Source: a virus
DNA: 64,000 nt
Direction: 5' to 3' (one strand)
IMG/VR virus record: IMGVR_UViG_3300020048_000012
Below the pieces are notes generated by a model that was not told the DNA's origin, ran no database searches, and saw only the letters and a list, made by a program, of their open reading frames with translations. Made by a program: the position numbers and the translations under genes. Shown piece by piece: positions 4,087 to 56,145 of the stretch. Every line of letters starts with the position of its first letter. Within the stretch, counting starts at the first letter, position 1.

Positions 4087-7000
4087 GCAATGACTCTAAA
4101 GTTTTTAATACGTGGCACCTTAGACTTATTTATCGATTTCATAACAAGCTTAACCATCACACTATCAAATGACGATAAGTTTTCAATATCTGCAATGATT
4201 GCGCTAAATGTGTCATTAGATTTAGAATAAGAATTTGGCACTGCTTTAAAATAGCGAGAAGCTATAAAATCACCTGAAACACTAAGACCAGTCTTATAAT
4301 AAATGTCAACTTCTGCTGCATCTGGAATAATTGCATCAAACATAATCTTTAACATTTCTGAAGGGCGACTGAAGTTGATCTTCTTAGTCACATATTTAGA
4401 ATGTGTAGATCCGCCAACTGACGCATACTCAGATTTAAAGTGCGATAACCATGTGATATCGACTGTTTGTCCAACAGTTGTGTCCATTAGCACTTCGCCA
4501 TAAACACCTTCTAATAACAAATACATGTTACCATCGGCGTCGTAACTTTTCTCTACAATTGCCATGAACCTGTCAGCGTCAGTGATACCAGAATAAGTTA
4601 TCTTAATGACATCTCCTGGATTCAATTGATTATTGATATTATTGTATAGCGTTGGCTGAGAGATAGAGTTAATAACAAGTGTGTCTTCAGAGCCATCGCC
4701 GTCTGAGTCAATAAGATCAATTGGTTTACTTGTGCCAAGTTCAGCCCCAGTGCCAATTACAAAATAATCTAAATCAGAATCGTTGATATCAAGCGTAGGC
4801 CAATCAATCTTATTACTAACCATAGTCATAGCGACACGACTTAAGTCAATGACCGGTGACACAGAATTACGAGTACTAGAAGGAGTTAATGTCGCAATAA
4901 CGCTTAAACCAATTGGAAACGAAGCACTAGAATAATTTGCTTCAGAAGGATAAACTTTAACATCTTCGAACGTAGTGTTTTCCTTTGGAATCATTCTATA
5001 TAATGCAGGTTGATCTGCATGATCAATCACCTTTGCGTTATATGAAATTGAAGTACCTTCAGGGACAATTTCAGCAATTTCTATCATCGCCGTTTGGAAT
5101 TCAAAGTTTTCAGATGCACAGATATATCCACCGCCAACTTGGCCAGACGCCGTAGAATCTACAGTACCACCAAATTCTACAACATATGAATCGATCTCAG
5201 TTGACAATAGTTGTAATGGAGTGTCGAAAATGAAGTCTCTAGAAATTCCATTGATTGAATCAATTACTTGACGAGATTTAAGAATGACGAACTCGCCTGT
5301 AATCATACCATGATCTTTATGTTCAATACGGCACTTGCGACTTCCTGTGATGAAATTCAACGGATTGAATCCAAGATCTTTATATGCCAATTTGCTTGGA
5401 ATGAATTCGATATCGACTGGCGCACTACTAAATTGCGCGCGGCGAATAACAAATTTCATATCTTGAGTTTGGTCGGCCGTCCATGTTGACGCATTTTGAG
5501 ATTTGAACAGTACGCCATTGTACGGCTGACTACTAATTCTTACATTAGACATCACATCGATTGTATCAGTCTGAGAGATCCAAAGTCTATATGCATTAGA
5601 ATCTGACAATACGACCAATGCGTATTCTACTCCATTCTGTAAGAATACAGGAGACACAAAGTTAAATGTAGTAGCAATAGATCCTCTAGCCGCATCGATA
5701 TTAATTTGACTTCCTTTTTTCTCAACACGTGAGAATGGCAATACTGCTGCGCCTGGATAACCATTAACAACTTCGCGAATTTCTATACGAACAGGCACTT
5801 TAGTATCAGCAGAGGCAAAGAATAAATCTACTGATGTTATGAATGCACCACCTTCTTGTTGCACAAGGAATGTCTGAGCAAGAGGATCGAACCAACCTGT
5901 GTCACGTGTTAAACGATCACTAGTCGTTACAACTGTATTAGTCGCAGAAACTTGTTCTGAAACAATATTCGCTGTGCGAGTTGCAACAATTGTGCGTTGC
6001 ATAACTTCAATCAAGCCCTTTGCTTCATAGAATGCGCCGCCTGATGTAGATTCCTGAGAAGCGCGAATCGCTTGATTATTAGAAGCACTATCAGAGAATC
6101 TAATTTCGCGAGTACCCGTTCTAAACTTTAGTAATGGGCTACTTGGAATGCGGAAAATACCACATAGCATGCCAGTAAACGAAGTCGTTGGAACTGCAAA
6201 GTTTGTTCTATTGACGAATTTAACGCGTGGTTTAATTCCATTAGAAAGATATTCACCTTCTAAGTAAGAATTTGCGCCGGTAGAAAACGCACCAGTTCCC
6301 TTAATGTTCATTACGTATATGTAATATTTTCCAAGATAGACTTCTTGTCCAACTACAATTGCGCTATTGTTATTTCCACCGATTTCTTTAATTACTTCGC
6401 CGTGATTAAAAGCGATTTCAACTTCTTCTGTAGTATGCTTAGTGCCAATTACTTTTGCAGAAATATCGGTGATTGTCGCACCACTAAAAGCAGGAGTGAC
6501 AGTCAACGTGTAATTATCAGCGACATCAGTGACTAAGTATTTAGTTGGCAATCCTACGTTGATAAAGTCGCCCACCTGCACTTGTTGCAAGAACGCAGTA
6601 GCTAAACCAGTGATTTGATCACTGCCATTAGTGAGTGTTATCGTACCAGTGAGTGTCGCACCATCGTTGTATTGAACACTGCGAGCTGCATCTGTAGACA
6701 CAGCCGATCCAGCATTACGAGTTACATCAAATGACCATGGATACAAACTGCCATCGGGTTTAGCGACTGGAACAACTTCTAAACGAACTGCAGGAGAGAT
6801 ATAATCATTCACTAATGTATTGTCGAAATAACCATACATTACAGTAGATGGTTTGAATCCGTACCCAGTGAATAACACTGCACGAGGACGAATGTAAGGA
6901 ACTAACTGTGTGTCAACTACTCGATCTTCAAGAACACGACTATCAACCTTATCGACAACGAATGATCGTGTGCCAGCTCTTGTAGAAGTAGTTTCAATAG

Positions 7001-43004: not shown

Positions 43005-43685
43005 ATGTCACCAATATACTTATACATAAAAACTCACAATATCACTGGATTGAAATATTTTGGCAAAACAATTGCAAAAGATCCATATGCATACAAAGGA
43101 TCTGGAACTCATTGGGTTGCACATATTAGAAAACATGGATATGATGTCACGACGACAATTTATGGAACTTATTACGATAAATTGGAATGTCAAATTGCTG
43201 CTATGGCTTTCAGCGAAGAAAATAACATAGTAGAATCTAACGAATGGGCTAATCTTAGAATTGAAAATCTAGATGGTGGCGACACTAGTCATACAGATGG
43301 TTATAAAAAATCTTTACACAAAATAGGCGAGGCCGCTAGAAAACACAAATGGTGGAATGATGGGGTGACACAGGCGTTTTCAGAAATGCCTCCAAGCGAA
43401 AATCATGTACGTGGTAGATTACATTTCAATAATTCTGGAGCAAAGTTGGGAGGTGCTGCACAAAAAGGGAAAATATGGGTTAATAATTCTATCGAGGAAT
43501 GCATGGTTTATACAGACGCAATCCCAAATGGATTTACTAAGGGTCGGTTAAAATCTAAATTAAAATCATTAACGCCAAGGCATTTTAATAAAGGAACTAA
43601 ATGGTGGAATAACGGAGAAATAGAATTAATGACTAATTCTCCATTAGAGTCGTTTGTTCCCGGTCGTTTAAAACGAATCAAATGA
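43005..43685 (+). mobile_element. Free-standing GIY-YIG-like homing endonuclease, opposite orientation
   Basis: IYLYIKTHNITGLKYFGKT..KDP..YKGSG.HW; KWWNDG/IWVNN/KWWNNG repeats; TATAAATA at 42974-42981. Confidence 0.8.
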
Positions 43686-44577
43686 TGCTATGATTATAAT
43701 TATTTGAAACCAATTCATTAGTTGGCATATCATCTAAGTCTATCACCAGACATTTGAAATTCGCATAATCTGGTCGCTCATTTGGATATCCGCGTGGATT
43801 GCACGCGACTAATGTATCACCCATATAATACCAATGTTGATGATGCACGTGCCCGCATGTCCATAATTTGATCTGAGGTCGATCAAGGATGAATTCGCTT
43901 AAATCAGAATAGTACGCCCCATTCATTAAATACTCGTTTTTGTAATCTTCACTGATACTCAATACGCTTGGTGCATGGTGCCCAACGATCACAAACTTTT
44001 CATCATGTTTTTCAGACACAACTTGTTTGATATAGCCCAGACTCTTACGATGACGATGAACTGCGTGAGCTGCGCGAAGTTTAGTATAACCATGCTCGTC
44101 ATTGCGAATAATACGAAAGTCATTCATCATGTCGCCGACTGCATGCAGCGTCAACGGGTCGACCTTATTCATATCAGTCCAGAGCGTAGCTCCAACAAAC
44201 GTAACGTCATCTAACTTAAAGATTTCATCTTCAAGAAAATGAATGTTGTCATGACGAGCATATAATTCGCGTAGAATAGACAATGACTTAACCCACTTAC
44301 CATTATAGAATTCATGGTTGCCCGCGATAACGATCACGTGTGGAAATTCTGAACTAATTTGTTTCAAAAAGTCCATGTACTTAATCGCATTACGAGTGCG
44401 ATGCGACATCTTCTCCACTGCGCCTGATGCATACGGATTGAAGTCGGGAATCTCACGATCAAAATCATCGGCAATAAGAATATCGCCCGACAAAACCAGA
44501 ACGTCAGCCTCTTCAGTATTTTTAAGTTCTATCATCCCAAATTCAAGATGTAGGTCACTGCACACTGCGATTTTCAT
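43678..44577 (-). CDS. Calcineurin-like metallophosphoesterase
   Basis: SDLHLEF, LSGDI, IAGNHEFY, VGHHAP, GHVH, CNPRGY. Confidence 0.92.
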   Translation of the reverse strand: MKIAVCSDLHLEFGMIELKNTEEADVLVLSGDILIADDFDREIPDFNPYASGAVEKMSHRTRNAIKYMDFLKQISSEFPHVIVIAGNHEFYNGKWVKSLSILRELYARHDNIHFLEDEIFKLDDVTFVGATLWTDMNKVDPLTLHAVGDMMNDFRIIRNDEHGYTKLRAAHAVHRHRKSLGYIKQVVSEKHDEKFVIVGHHAPSVLSISEDYKNEYLMNGAYYSDLSEFILDRPQIKLWTCGHVHHQHWYYMGDTLVACNPRGYPNERPDYANFKCLVIDLDDMPTNELVSNNYNHSII

Positions 44578-44771
44578 TTATAATAGCCTGTAAAATTTTC
44601 TTCTATTTCAACGACGATTGCGTCGTGTGTCTTTACGATATTGGAATATCCTGCAGGTTCGCGCGACATATATTCATCTGTGTACTCTCTCAGATATGGC
44701 ACGATATGTCCAACATGATTTCTATACCACATCAGACAATCTCGACAATCTATAATCTTAAGCGCTTTCAT
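44574..44771 (-). CDS. Hypothetical protein
   Basis: 65 aa, overlapping neighbours. Confidence 0.6.
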   Translation of the reverse strand: MKALKIIDCRDCLMWYRNHVGHIVPYLREYTDEYMSREPAGYSNIVKTHDAIVVEIEENFTGYYK

Positions 44772-45058
44772 TAAATGCTTTTCATAGTCAAATAAAACTT
44801 GCCAACATTGCCAGTGAGAGTAAGAAACTTTGCAAACGCTATACTTATTGATTCATCAAATCTGTACTTTTCTGGTAGATCTACAAACCCAAAATCTGGT
44901 GTTGCAAATAAGCCAATACCTACGACACAATTTTCGTTTTTAGTATTCTGATTAGGCCAAAAAATTTCTAGACCAGTTTCTTCAATTTCTTCTGGCGACA
45001 TGCCTAACTCAGTAAATGGCATGCCGATAACCAGCCAAGCTGAATAATTTGTACTCAT
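44771..45058 (-). CDS. Hypothetical protein
   Basis: Likely start MSTNYSAW (ATGA overlap). Confidence 0.55.
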   Translation of the reverse strand: MSTNYSAWLVIGMPFTELGMSPEEIEETGLEIFWPNQNTKNENCVVGIGLFATPDFGFVDLPEKYRFDESISIAFAKFLTLTGNVGKFYLTMKSI

Positions 45059-45297
45059 TTTCCAAGACCCATCATAATTTTTAATCTCCAAGCAGTAAAT
45101 GAAATAATCTTCAAACCATCTACTCTTTCCGTTGTATGAATTGCAAACAACAGAGTCTGCAATTTATCATCCACGATTTGAGACCAACAATCTTCGGCCC
45201 AAATCCATTCACCCATAAATCTACCAAATTCAAATGTGTGACGTGGATTTGCACATGACTTTAAGTTAAAGTGTACTCTAAGTTCATCTTTTGTCAT
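45055..45297 (-). CDS. Hypothetical protein
   Basis: 80 aa with GAAGG RBS. Confidence 0.55.
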   Translation of the reverse strand: MTKDELRVHFNLKSCANPRHTFEFGRFMGEWIWAEDCWSQIVDDKLQTLLFAIHTTERVDGLKIISFTAWRLKIMMGLGK

Positions 45298-45346
45298 TTT
45301 TCGCCTTCAAGAGACTGGCGCGCCAATGACCATCCGTGCTGCATAA

Positions 45347-45538
45347 TTAATCCTTTGCAATGTATTCCATGCGAACATCATACTTTTTATCTTCTTTTTC
45401 GACAACATCATACGCCACAATTAGAAAGCCATACTTTTTCATTTTGTAAGACTTTACCAATTGTAGCATTTGTGAATGATTCAAATCACTATAATCTCTT
45501 ACAGTGATATGTGGCTTAAGAAGAATTGGAATCTTCAT
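45347..45538 (-). CDS. Hypothetical protein
   Basis: 63 aa overlapping the ligase stop. Confidence 0.5.
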   Translation of the reverse strand: MKIPILLKPHITVRDYSDLNHSQMLQLVKSYKMKKYGFLIVAYDVVEKEDKKYDVRMEYIAKD

Positions 45539-46590
45539 TTTTCACCTTCAAGATAAAGATTAGAAACACACTTGAAAGAAATTCTTTTACCAGAATTGGC
45601 TTTGTATACAATACCTTCGCGTAGGCAGCCCACTTGTCCAAGAACAGATTGTCCATCTGCGTGGGCAAGAAGTTTATTAGCAGAGATGCCAGCCAAAACT
45701 CTTTCTTTATTGTACACAGGAGCATCGGTTAACTCAAGAAGTGCTGTCAATTCTCTACGATCAACTGGGGCATAATATTCAAACTTATCGATGTTAAACA
45801 CATCAAATACAAAGAACATGTGCTTTGTCAAATTGTAAATGTTGCCTTGGATGCCTGGGCCACACAGTTCACCTTGAATAGCGACATTTTTTCCAAGATA
45901 TGTCAACTTGGTTTTCAGATCAAGTTCAAGCGCCATCTTCCAGAATGTATTATCTTCAGATTCCTTCAGATCAAGATTCCGAGAACAAACGCCAAAGTCT
46001 CCATCACGGAAGTACACCGTCATAGAAGAACCTTCGCACTTTTCAGTTTCTTCCCAAGTTTCAGTATCGAAGTACTTTGCAACATCATCGTAGCAATTCT
46101 GTACACGTTCCTGATCAGTCTTGATGATGAAAGACGGAAAAGATCCGCGGGCATCAGCAGAAGTAAACTCCGGTGGTGCTTCCCACTTTACAATACCAAG
46201 AACTTCTGAAACATCATCTCCAACTTTATAATCTGGCATCAAATCTGCTGGTTCATCATACCCAGAGCCACAACCAAAAATAGACATCGGCAGAATCAAT
46301 CCTTGAGACAGAGCCTTACGAAGACGAATGGTACGAAGCTTTTCACCTTCGACACCGTTATACACCTTTGGAAAATGTCCAGCCTTAGTCAGGAATGGAG
46401 CAATCGTAGACGGGATGAAGGAATCAACTTCACAGAAGATGACTCGGTCACCGACTTGGTACTTACCGACTTGATCAACTACTCTCCACCCATTGATGCC
46501 ATACTGACAAATTTTGTCGGCACCTTCAATTGGGTGAACGCCATTTACTTCTTGAATAGAAGCCATTTTTCTCACATAAACATCATTCAT
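45535..46590 (-). CDS. RNA ligase, DRB0094 family
   Basis: RKMASIQ...HPIEGADKI, SQGLILP, FPSFIIKTDQERVQN, TEKCEGSS, IQGELCGPGIQGN, REGIVYK, SFKCVSN.YL. Confidence 0.92.
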   Translation of the reverse strand: MNDVYVRKMASIQEVNGVHPIEGADKICQYGINGWRVVDQVGKYQVGDRVIFCEVDSFIPSTIAPFLTKAGHFPKVYNGVEGEKLRTIRLRKALSQGLILPMSIFGCGSGYDEPADLMPDYKVGDDVSEVLGIVKWEAPPEFTSADARGSFPSFIIKTDQERVQNCYDDVAKYFDTETWEETEKCEGSSMTVYFRDGDFGVCSRNLDLKESEDNTFWKMALELDLKTKLTYLGKNVAIQGELCGPGIQGNIYNLTKHMFFVFDVFNIDKFEYYAPVDRRELTALLELTDAPVYNKERVLAGISANKLLAHADGQSVLGQVGCLREGIVYKANSGKRISFKCVSNLYLEGEK

Positions 46591-46786
46591 TTTCATCTCC
46601 TGCCATTTTATCTAATTTTAAAGACAATTCATAATCATATTCTGATCCATACCGACACTCTTGTTCGCGTGTCCAATTTCTTCGATCAGTGCAACTATGT
46701 TCTGTAAATCGTTCATATTGATTCATACACGATTCGCGAAGAGCTTCGGCGGCTTTTCTTAATATATCTATTTGATCTTCAGTCAT
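46583..46786 (-). CDS. Hypothetical protein, paralogue A
   Basis: MTEDQIDILRKAAEALRESC...QECRYGSEYDYELSLKLDKMA; paralogue at 47897-48115. Confidence 0.7.
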   Translation of the reverse strand: MTEDQIDILRKAAEALRESCMNQYERFTEHSCTDRRNWTREQECRYGSEYDYELSLKLDKMAGDENE

Positions 46787-53964: not shown

Positions 53965-53988
53965 AAAGCCCGAATAAATTCGAGCTTT
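53965..53988 (-). terminator. Intrinsic terminator
   Basis: AAAGCTCGAA-TTTA-TTCGGGCTTT(T) on minus strand after the small-gene operon. Confidence 0.7.
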
Positions 53989-54003: not shown

Positions 54004-54174
54004 TTACTTTTTATCGTAAAGACTTAATCGTTCATTTTCATCGGATAATTGTTTCTGTAAATTATCTGATTCTTTTTGTTTATCTTTTCCGAATATAGCA
54101 TCCCATCGATTATCATATTCTTCTTGTGTCACACTATATGGTCTTGGTTTAGACCCTTTTCCACCATCACTCAT
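54004..54174 (-). CDS. Small conserved phage protein (56 aa; not in ORF track)
   Basis: MSDGGKGSKPRPYSVTQEEYDNRWDAIFGK...; start overlaps upstream stop. Confidence 0.7.
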   Translation of the reverse strand: MSDGGKGSKPRPYSVTQEEYDNRWDAIFGKDKQKESDNLQKQLSDENERLSLYDKK

Positions 54175-54317
54175 TTTGATTCAACCTTAATAGTCTCGGC
54201 CAATGACTTTTGGAAACTATCTTCAGATAGTACGTGACTGCCATTACAATATCCAGACGCGCTGCGACCACAACTGCATAATTTTTTGACCTCGGTTAGC
54301 ATAATTTTTTCGCTCAT
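54171..54317 (-). CDS. CDGSH-like iron-sulfur mini-protein (48 aa; not in ORF track)
   Basis: MSEKIMLTEVKKLCSCGRSASGYCNGSHVLSE...; CxCxxS...CxGSH motif; AAGGA RBS. Confidence 0.7.
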   Translation of the reverse strand: MSEKIMLTEVKKLCSCGRSASGYCNGSHVLSEDSFQKSLAETIKVESK

Positions 54318-54325
54318 ATAGTTCC

Positions 54326-54955
54326 TTATAAGTAATGACAGAATGTCGTCATGATATATTTAGGGTCGCTGATTGGTTTAAATCCACAATGTAGATATTG
54401 CCAAGTGCTCGGAAATATTAGCATACTTCCTTTCTTGGGTTGACAACTAAATCCCAATTTAGGAAATGCTGCGTCACCACCTTCAGGGATATCATTCAAA
54501 TAATATAATGCAGTGATGAATCGACGGGCCGATGCGTAATCACCGACATCAGTATGTAACCCAAATCCATCTTTGCCATTATTCATTGTCCGATTAATTC
54601 TAAAATGCTCAAATCCGTATTTTTCTGGAATTCTAGTTGGAGCATCCTGTGCATCAATATCAATCATATATTCGCCAATAGCTCGAACAGTGTAGTTTAC
54701 TACATGCGTGTGTAGATGTTTGAATAAAGGAATGTGTTGATTATCTGTGACATTCAATTGATCAAATCTAAAGTGGCCTTCGCCTTGCGCGTGAGTAACA
54801 TGTAATTGAGAATTTTTATCATACAATTGCAATAACTCATTGCATAAAGACGAAGGCAAAACATTTGGTTTATACGTGATATAGAACGCCAAATGCGTCT
54901 TATCAGGACGCCAAGTCATATAATCTTCTGGTGCAAGACGAATAATATCATTCAT
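54326..54955 (-). CDS. 2OG-Fe(II) oxygenase (prolyl-hydroxylase-like)
   Basis: FGLHTD, RFITALYYLND..EGG, PKKGSMLIFP..W.YLHCG, KYI. Confidence 0.88.
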   Translation of the reverse strand: MNDIIRLAPEDYMTWRPDKTHLAFYITYKPNVLPSSLCNELLQLYDKNSQLHVTHAQGEGHFRFDQLNVTDNQHIPLFKHLHTHVVNYTVRAIGEYMIDIDAQDAPTRIPEKYGFEHFRINRTMNNGKDGFGLHTDVGDYASARRFITALYYLNDIPEGGDAAFPKLGFSCQPKKGSMLIFPSTWQYLHCGFKPISDPKYIMTTFCHYL

Positions 54956-55638
54956 AATTTTAAATTCCTAGAATACGCTTCAATTTCGACTAATAAATCA
55001 TCTCTACAAATGTCTACATTTATAATTTTACCACTAATATTGTATTTTTGTAAAATATGTTTTACAACTTGATTTGATTCTTTATTCTTTACGTAGATAG
55101 TATACACTAAGTCTGAATTAGTTACACCCGATGTTGTCATCAATCTTCCGATATTATTAAGCGTTAAATCTATTTGACCAAACAAATCATCTTTATACCA
55201 TGTTTCACTGCCACGAATACTGGCTGTGCCAGATATCAATAAGTTATTGTCGTGTATTGCTGCTCGCGAAAATAATGGAACGCCATACACAGATGGATAA
55301 TTGAATGGATCTATTTGATTTGTATTGCTAAAGAAACGAGCTGGCGTTCGTGCTCGCGTATAGATGAGAGTGTATGTATCATCGAATGATCCTAAAGCAC
55401 ATGCAGTAGGATATTCCGTTACATTAAATTTAGTGAATATCTTTTTGCGAACTACATTGAATTTTGAGTATCGCTGAACGCCATCTTCATAACGAAGAAT
55501 ATCGGGTATAAAGTTTCTTATGTTGATAATGTATGGATATTCAGAATTGGGCGTAAACATTGCATTATACGCCCGTTCAATTTGTGATTCTATATCATAT
55601 CCACTTATTTTGATTTTAGTAGTTTGATAATTTTTCAT
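54952..55638 (-). CDS. FkbO/Hyg5/XanB2-like chorismatase (RidA/YjgF-fold)
   Basis: YPYIINIRNFIP, QRYSKFN..R, PTACALG, NQIDPFNYP..YG.PLFSRA, LISGTASIRG, DICRDDLLVEIEA; start moved to MKNYQ. Confidence 0.72.
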   Translation of the reverse strand: MKNYQTTKIKISGYDIESQIERAYNAMFTPNSEYPYIINIRNFIPDILRYEDGVQRYSKFNVVRKKIFTKFNVTEYPTACALGSFDDTYTLIYTRARTPARFFSNTNQIDPFNYPSVYGVPLFSRAAIHDNNLLISGTASIRGSETWYKDDLFGQIDLTLNNIGRLMTTSGVTNSDLVYTIYVKNKESNQVVKHILQKYNISGKIINVDICRDDLLVEIEAYSRNLKL

Positions 55639-55648
55639 AATATTAAAA

Positions 55649-55724
55649 TGGTGGTCGGAAGAACACTCGAAGTTCCACATTTATCCGTATGAAGGATACT
55701 CTCTGCCTCTTAAGATACCCGACC
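55649..55724 (-). tRNA. tRNA-Met/Ile2 (CAT)
   Basis: Cloverleaf; TATCC-TTCATAC-GGATA; CCA. Confidence 0.8.
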
Positions 55725-56049: not shown

Positions 56050-56145
56050 GAACTCATTGTAGGCAGGGGTCGAACCTGCACGAGGCGTCTATTTCCTCCG
56101 ACCCTATGAGAGGTCTATGACTACCAATTCCATCACTACGAGTTC
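56050..56145 (-). ncRNA. tRNA-like RNA with bulged acceptor stem, long variable arm and no CCA
   Basis: GGAATTGGTAG D-loop, GCAGG-TTCGACC-CCTGC T-arm, irregular TCTCATAG anticodon loop. Confidence 0.55.

Follow-up and report, generated by a model that had tools for sequence, protein, structure and literature searches.

Four closely spaced genes occupy positions 54,004 to 55,638 of a 64-kb stretch of the IMG/VR virus record IMGVR_UViG_3300020048_000012 (the whole of this stretch, read out of a contig of about 202 kb, is called the window below). All lie on the minus strand. The first (gene 1, 54952-55638, 228 aa) encodes a predicted short chorismatase of the FkbO/Hyg5/XanB2 family, and the second (gene 2, 54326-54955, 209 aa) a predicted 2-oxoglutarate (2OG)/Fe(II) oxygenase resembling prolyl 4-hydroxylases (P4Hs). 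They are followed by the genes of a CDGSH-like mini-protein of 48 aa (gene 3, 54171-54317) and of a small protein of 56 aa (gene 4, 54004-54174). Genes 1 and 2 overlap in an ATGA sequence, as do genes 3 and 4, while genes 2 and 3 are separated by 8 nts, the start of gene 3 being preceded by AAGGA, a good Shine-Dalgarno site. A scan for terminators located an intrinsic-terminator-like hairpin (53965-53988, minus strand; 10 pairs, 4 of them G-C, and a T-rich tail) 16 nts past the stop of gene 4. A preliminary description of this DNA had proposed four coupled genes followed by a terminator, and all four open reading frames (ORFs) were found where it placed them. Comparison with a relative of 93% identity gave dN/dS values of 0.04 for gene 1, 0.04 for gene 2, 0.06 for gene 3 and 0.12 for gene 4. 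Purifying selection thus acts on all four ORFs and is strong for genes 1 and 2.

Gene 1 is matched by two Pfam families, PF21168 (FkbO_Hyg5-like_N; E-value 1.4e-11, 44.9 bits for a cut-off of 27) and PF01042 (1.5e-7, 31.9 bits for a cut-off of 27.3), and by the NCBIfam profile TIGR04444 (1.7e-25), over positions 79-309 of its 311. A sequence search of the PDB returned only two solved structures, Hyg5 (6e-13, from residue 108) and FkbO (1.3e-11, from residue 126). The AlphaFold (AF2) model of the protein, built on 22 homologues, reached a mean confidence (pLDDT) of 94.7. It was superposed by VIA-align on residues 87-340 of Hyg5 with a Z-score of 27.3 and on residues 95-344 of FkbO with a Z-score of 27.1 (root-mean-square deviation of 1.8-1.9 Å over 224 residues), and Foldseek matched it to chorismatases with an E-value of 9e-19 and a probability of 1.00. 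The model argues that gene 1 encodes a real FkbO/Hyg5/XanB2-type chorismatase fold, corresponding to the C-terminal two-thirds of the enzyme. The assignment of the first gene to this family in the preliminary description therefore agrees with Pfam, NCBIfam, the fold and the catalytic Glu discussed below, and the structural comparison with FkbO and Hyg5 that it had proposed recovered both fold and Glu. Sequence identity amounts to 28% with Hyg5 and 33-37% with long proteobacterial members of the family.

Full-length chorismatases are described as three-lobed. The full-length architecture of about 330-350 residues with an N-terminal lobe is not found in gene 1, which lacks the N-terminal ~90 residues: one lobe, residues 1-86 in Hyg5, is missing, and FkbO has about 94 extra N-terminal residues. 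More generally, the long forms carry a median of 101 additional N-terminal residues. Lengths in the family are bimodal, at ~220-260 versus 300-360 residues, and in a maximum-likelihood tree of the shared region all 33 proteins of 223-249 aa fell into one clade that holds no long member (support 0.77); the other short entries are scattered through the tree and look like fragments. The preliminary description had suspected that the first gene lacked part of its N-terminus. The missing residues are real, and they are a trait of the whole clade, not the mark of a broken gene. A truncated or broken gene 1 was rejected, given that the ORF of the 93% relative starts at the same Met, that the 33 short proteins form one clade and that dN/dS is 0.04. 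A longer reading of 242 aa from position 55680 was also rejected. The start of gene 1 is placed at 55638 because the longer reading overlaps the upstream tRNA gene and is absent from the relative, whose ORF begins at MKNYQ. In the long forms, none of the columns of the lost N-terminal ~100 residues reaches 95% conservation, as against 37 columns at or above this level in the retained part, so the lost lobe apparently contains none of the residues essential to catalysis.

The retained part appears to hold the complete active site. Glu218 of gene 1, within a C-terminal LLVEIE motif, aligns with Glu334 of Hyg5 and Glu338 of FkbO, and Glu334 of Hyg5 is named as the essential acid that protonates the methylene of the enolpyruvyl group (PMC7170507). 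Residues were compared across 259 aligned members of the family, including 197 long and 45 short forms. Tyr57, Phe60, Arg64, Gln108, Tyr114, Pro121, Phe123, Arg125, Gly137, Thr138, Gln155, Cys211, Arg212 and Glu218 are invariant or nearly so in the 197 long forms and unchanged in 45 out of 45 short ones, and from residue 15 onwards every column that is invariant in the long forms is kept in the short forms. This conservation bears on the possibility that gene 1 acts on something other than chorismate, namely a Rid-like handling of another enolpyruvyl compound, or of an enamine or imine, made or used by the oxygenase. Residues 97-227 alone form a canonical RidA/YjgF lobe (Z-score ~15), one lobe of the chorismatase is lost and the TIGR04444 score is far under the cut-off, all of which would suit such an activity. 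On the other hand, an enzyme that had switched to a new substrate would be expected to differ in some of the invariant residues, and the Glu, the Cys, two Arg and two Tyr that are invariant in chorismatases are all unchanged in the 45 short forms; we consider a non-chorismate substrate quite unlikely.

Other residues of gene 1 also suggest the kind of product. Hyg5 (PDB 5ag3/5a3k; type CH-II) and the XanB2-type enzymes (CH-III), which are 3-hydroxybenzoate (3-HBA) or 3-HBA/4-hydroxybenzoate (4-HBA) synthases, share with gene 1 the fold, the Glu, the Gly, the Cys and the other invariant residues. FkbO (PDB 4bps; CH-I), a chorismate hydrolase that yields a dihydroxycyclohexadiene acid, has the same fold and catalytic Glu but differs at the positions of Gly137 and Cys211, both of which are Ala. 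By alignment, Gly137 corresponds to Gly240 and Cys211 to Cys327 of Hyg5, and a Gly/Gly/Cys set was reported as characteristic of CH-II (PMC7170507). The third residue of this set, a Gly, maps to Ala81 or Gly83 of gene 1, according to which numbering offset from Nat-Hyg5 is applied. The Gly/Cys pattern predicts that the short chorismatase releases an aromatic hydroxybenzoate; an FkbO-type hydrolytic outcome, giving a dihydrodiol, is less likely because the two Ala of FkbO are replaced by Gly and Cys in gene 1.

Gene 2 is matched by PF13640 (3.3e-9) and phrog_61 (1e-35). Its His134-x-Asp136, His189 and Lys199 are invariant in the 20 members of its own clade and in 37 relatives of the type found in cyanophages, so that the predicted HxD...H...K iron/2OG centre is intact, with Lys199 placed by its position as the probable ligand of the 2OG C5-carboxylate. 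The call of a 2OG-Fe(II) oxygenase in the preliminary description is borne out by these matches and by the intact core. The AF2 model (pLDDT 88) is a double-stranded beta-helix, and each of its 50 best matches in Foldseek is a prolyl hydroxylase. The P4Hs of B. anthracis (3itq/5hv0), PBCV-1 (vCPH, 5c5t) and P. putida (PPHD, 4j25) share this beta-helix and the metal and 2OG ligands with gene 2, but characterised P4Hs are no more than 15-24% identical to it, with TM-scores of 0.55-0.6. Homologues of gene 2 form two groups, one of 20 proteins (197-210 residues) with 44-99% identity and another, at 40% or less, that corresponds to the oxygenase adjoining gp41/uvsX in T4-like cyanophages and pelagiphages. 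The cyanophage PF13640 protein is 37-40% identical to gene 2 over 90% of its length and has the same HxD...H...K core and many shared invariant residues but, unlike the clade of gene 2, no chorismatase neighbour. Comparison of the paired with the unpaired cyanophage clade revealed fixed changes at N121(K), T123(Y), Q66(E), T148(V), L150(F), A162(T), S183(P) and F205(Y), the catalytic core being kept. Such changes fit a changed substrate pocket in the paired oxygenases.

The association of the two genes extends beyond this phage. In all six distinct cassette-bearing contigs that were read (the 93% relative, seen as L001/L084, and L003/L085, L004, L086, L087 and L088), a short chorismatase gene is followed immediately by an oxygenase gene of the gene 2 clade, the stop codon of the first overlapping the start codon of the second. 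No short form without an adjoining oxygenase occurs among the loci read, and no oxygenase of this clade was found in about 79 bacterial loci of long-form chorismatases. Apart from the 93% relative, the chorismatases of these contigs are only 33-39% identical to that of the window, and their neighbours differ from contig to contig (tail-fibre-like genes, a cell-wall hydrolase, uvsY or gp59). Contig sizes shared by the lists of chorismatase and oxygenase homologues (3317, 20511, 20717, 10482, 6003 and 2422) suggest six further pairs; for P0007 (276 kb), P0015 (358 kb), P0011 and P0012, the pairing is likewise deduced from equal contig sizes only. Taken together, these comparisons indicate that the conserved unit is a translationally coupled two-gene phage cassette of short chorismatase and oxygenase. 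A module of four genes was rejected: gene 3 is absent from the cassette-bearing contigs other than the 93% relative, and gene 4 is displaced in that relative and occurs elsewhere without the cassette. Hence, of the operon that the preliminary description had regarded as a module and for which it suggested a survey of co-occurrence, genes 1 and 2 are co-conserved and genes 3 and 4 are bound to one lineage.

Whereas the phage chorismatase is coupled to an oxygenase, enzymes of the Hyg5 and XanB2 types sit in polyketide, xanthomonadin or quinone clusters. Nature seems to have coupled chorismatase chemistry in another way in P0244, a metagenomic protein of 755 aa in which a long, bacterial-type chorismatase domain is fused to a class I/II aminotransferase (PF21168 + PF00155). 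As for the surroundings of the cassette, L088 contains an ORF of 269 codons (4379-5188) between the oxygenase and uvsY, which we take from its sequence to be DNA methyltransferase-like, and which L087, collinear in other respects, lacks.

The function that we favour for the cassette, with a rough probability of 0.45, is a two-step conversion in which the short chorismatase would turn chorismate into hydroxybenzoate and pyruvate, followed by a 2OG-dependent oxidation by the coupled oxygenase. Here we infer what the substrate and the products are, which of the two steps comes first and what the mini-protein does. Chorismate would be taken from the host, and the conserved Glu would protonate its enolpyruvyl side chain to give pyruvate and 3-HBA and/or 4-HBA. 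The oxygenase would then oxidise the hydroxybenzoate, most simply to a dihydroxybenzoate, and in the lineage of the window the CDGSH-like protein could plausibly keep the iron of the oxygenase reduced or supplied.

Several observations weigh against this two-step conversion. The TIGR04444 match of gene 1 reaches only 89.9 bits, for a cut-off of 325. The Gly/Cys pattern is common to all 197 long forms retrieved, some of them annotated as XanB2-type, and is for this reason no guide to whether 3-HBA or 4-HBA is made. A scan that covered another 26 of the window's ORFs and 4 ORFs of related loci uncovered no user of hydroxybenzoate in the 64-kb window, nor any other aromatic or quinone gene among these ORFs. 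The last two points concern the oxygenase: the nearest solved relatives of gene 2 are hydroxylases of prolines in proteins (collagen, EF-Tu and HIF; TM-scores of 0.55-0.6), and its cyanophage sister clade occurs without any chorismatase. Both also count in favour of another reading, in which the chorismatase would serve merely to drain chorismate, shutting the host branches that lead to aromatic amino acids, folate, siderophores and quinones and producing pyruvate, and the oxygenase would be co-inherited with a macromolecular target of its own, for instance a proline in a translation factor of the host; among the closest solved structures are the enzymes with which P. putida and B. anthracis modify EF-Tu. 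However, the strict overlapping pairing, kept despite chorismatase identities of 33-39% and among unrelated neighbours, argues for a shared task, as do the several pocket positions fixed differently in the paired oxygenases. A drain with an independent oxygenase is, in our estimate, unlikely.

In a bolder variant, the oxygenase would take the place of the lost lobe, and the two proteins would form a bi-enzyme particle that channels chorismate to a catechol-type dihydroxybenzoate for iron or redox purposes, with the CDGSH-like protein as Fe-S or electron partner. Such a particle seems improbable to us. Were it to exist, it would provide the first substrate for any 2OG/Fe(II) oxygenase of T4-like phages, a large orphan family.

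Another use of the product could be the supply of quinones, an idea that the preliminary description had put forward along with redox supply. The short chorismatase would make 4-HBA for host ubiquinone, as XanB2 does, and the hydroxyl group added to the ring by the oxygenase would bypass a host hydroxylation step. The nearest long forms of gene 1 are betaproteobacterial, some being annotated at their source as chorismate lyase or 3-hydroxybenzoate synthase, and XanB2 is presented as a link between chorismate and ubiquinone in proteobacteria (Zhou et al. 2013, as cited in PMC4433059), both of which count in favour of this use. Against it, the window has no detectable prenyltransferase or other Ubi gene, and a lytic cycle is so short that hardly any new quinone could be made in it. 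In addition, the likely gammaproteobacterial hosts already own UbiC. The likelihood of a quinone supply was consequently judged low, and a two-step conversion of chorismate to oxidised hydroxybenzoate is retained as the preferred function.

The two remaining genes of the operon are additions of the lineage. Gene 3 contains the sequence C-S-C-G-R-S-A-S-G-Y-C-N-G-S-H, in which the four ligand residues, 3 Cys and 1 His, are present (CxCx2Sx4CNGSH), and its motif CSCGRSASGYCNGSH occurs once in the six frames of the window. The canonical CDGSH motif reads C-X-C-X2-(S/T)-X3-P-X-C-D-G-(S/A/T)-H. Gene 3 departs from it by a loop one residue shorter, by the absence of the Pro and by an Asn in place of the Asp. 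The profile zf-CDGSH (PF09360) scores 16.4 bits (E-value 0.011), and 21.5 bits for the orthologue in the 93% relative, which has the Asp and reads CDGSH, both under the cut-off of 29.5. The protein aligns to PDB 3tbn, a member of the CDGSH/NEET family, with which it shares the CxC…C-x-G-S-H order, about 13 residues before the motif and a helical tail of about 20 residues after it; it differs as a stand-alone protein of 48 aa. Apart from this phage, homologue searches located gene 3 in the 93% relative and in a single contig of 2.2 kb and nowhere else; it was not found in the other cassette-bearing contigs. Only one homologue is close, and the Atlas neighbours of gene 3 have no family assignment. 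Gene 3 is a real gene and a lineage-specific accessory, and its protein probably carries a 2Fe-2S cluster. The identification of the 48-aa protein as CDGSH in the preliminary description thus holds for the motif with its 3 Cys and 1 His, but the motif is non-canonical and the score lies below the Pfam cut-off.

Gene 4 is ATGA-coupled to gene 3 in the window. In the 93% relative it is split off from the CDGSH-like gene by an interval (7464-8112 of L001) that contains a hydrophobic ORF of 65 codons, a tRNA-Thr (GGU) gene and two adjacent ORFs, presumably the fragments of a split staphylococcal-nuclease-like gene. No match to gene 4 was obtained in Pfam, PHROG or PADLOC. Its homologues occur without the cassette in unrelated uncultured Caudoviricetes, and its Atlas neighbours are all viral. 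The family of gene 4 (GGKGSKPRPYSV…YDNRWDAIFG) also includes MW202879.1 (33682-33810), among Caudoviricetes records of 33-36 kb from Manatee Spring. Gene 4 is therefore best described as a member of a small family that appears confined to phages, outside the conserved module.

Upstream, the operon adjoins an array of 31 tRNA genes. The last of these, a tRNA-Met (CAU) gene identified by ARAGORN (55649-55724, minus strand), has an encoded CCA end that is separated from the ATG of gene 1 by 10 nts; the corresponding spacer in the 93% relative is 8 nts. A scan of the spacer detected no promoter-like site between the tRNA-Met gene and the ATG. The operon is thus predicted to be read through from the tRNA array, in line with the preliminary description, which had placed it at the end of the tRNA transcript. 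The spacer (55638-55649) consists of A and T only and has no Shine-Dalgarno site. After 3′ processing of the tRNA, the mRNA of gene 1 would be almost leaderless. Elsewhere in the array region, ARAGORN reported a tRNA-like gene of 88 nts (56055-56142) with a two-base anticodon, 'ca'.

The preliminary description had also considered that the genes might modify the tRNA or DNA of the phage. Co-transcription with the tRNA array here and in the 93% relative is compatible with it, and tRNA genes are found 3.5-5 kb downstream of the cassette in L086-L088. However, L085 is free of tRNA genes over 12.6 kb, and so is L004, so that adjacency is limited to this lineage; tRNA clusters are general regions of accessory genes in T4-like phages, and Pfam, PHROG and NCBIfam scans disclosed no nucleic-acid-binding domain. 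Moreover, the chemistry of ho5U/cmo5U uses prephenate and not 4-HBA, and a chorismatase would compete with this chemistry and deplete the prephenate. A role in tRNA or DNA modification has little support and is considered highly improbable.

The genes around the operon, among which are gp32, gp59, PhoH, an RNA ligase and topoisomerase II (45% identity to Aeromonas/Vibrio T4-like phages), indicate that the window derives from an uncultured T4-like phage. An RNA ligase (PF09414 with a PHA02142 OB domain) and a calcineurin-like phosphoesterase, encoded at 43678-46596, some 8-10 kb from the tRNA array, may constitute a tRNA-repair set.

The cassette is restricted to phages, where it is present in several unrelated contigs and in no cultured phage. 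A tblastn search of 50,697 GenBank phage records found no chorismatase, and megablast likewise no close relative in a cultured phage. The viral structure library BFVD contains no chorismatase-like protein, only distant YjgF proteins of Pandoravirus. Among prokaryotes (one genome per species, 185,579 species), no oxygenase of the paired clade was found, the only matches, at 32-34%, being on two small contigs of metagenome-assembled genomes. A component of a known defence or anti-defence system is not supported, as PADLOC gave only a generic match to the 2OG domain. In the searchable literature, we found no report of a phage-encoded chorismatase or of a link between phages and 3-hydroxybenzoate. 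The cassette is probably a known kind of enzyme in a new, phage-specific pairing and, as judged from sequence, an undescribed viral two-step pathway.

Oxygenases of the 2OG/Fe(II) type are abundant in phages, reaching 24 in a cyanophage genome; the functions of these enzymes have 'not been specifically investigated' (PMC9602691). An obligatory partner with predictable chemistry makes one clade of them directly testable. The short clade implies that the chorismatase fold can shed a whole lobe and yet keep every catalytic residue, and the short enzyme would be a smaller scaffold, relevant to the production of hydroxybenzoates by Hyg5 and XanB2. The routes to aromatic amino acids, folate, siderophores and quinones diverge at chorismate, and a phage gene for an enzyme at this point would be an auxiliary metabolic gene of a new kind.

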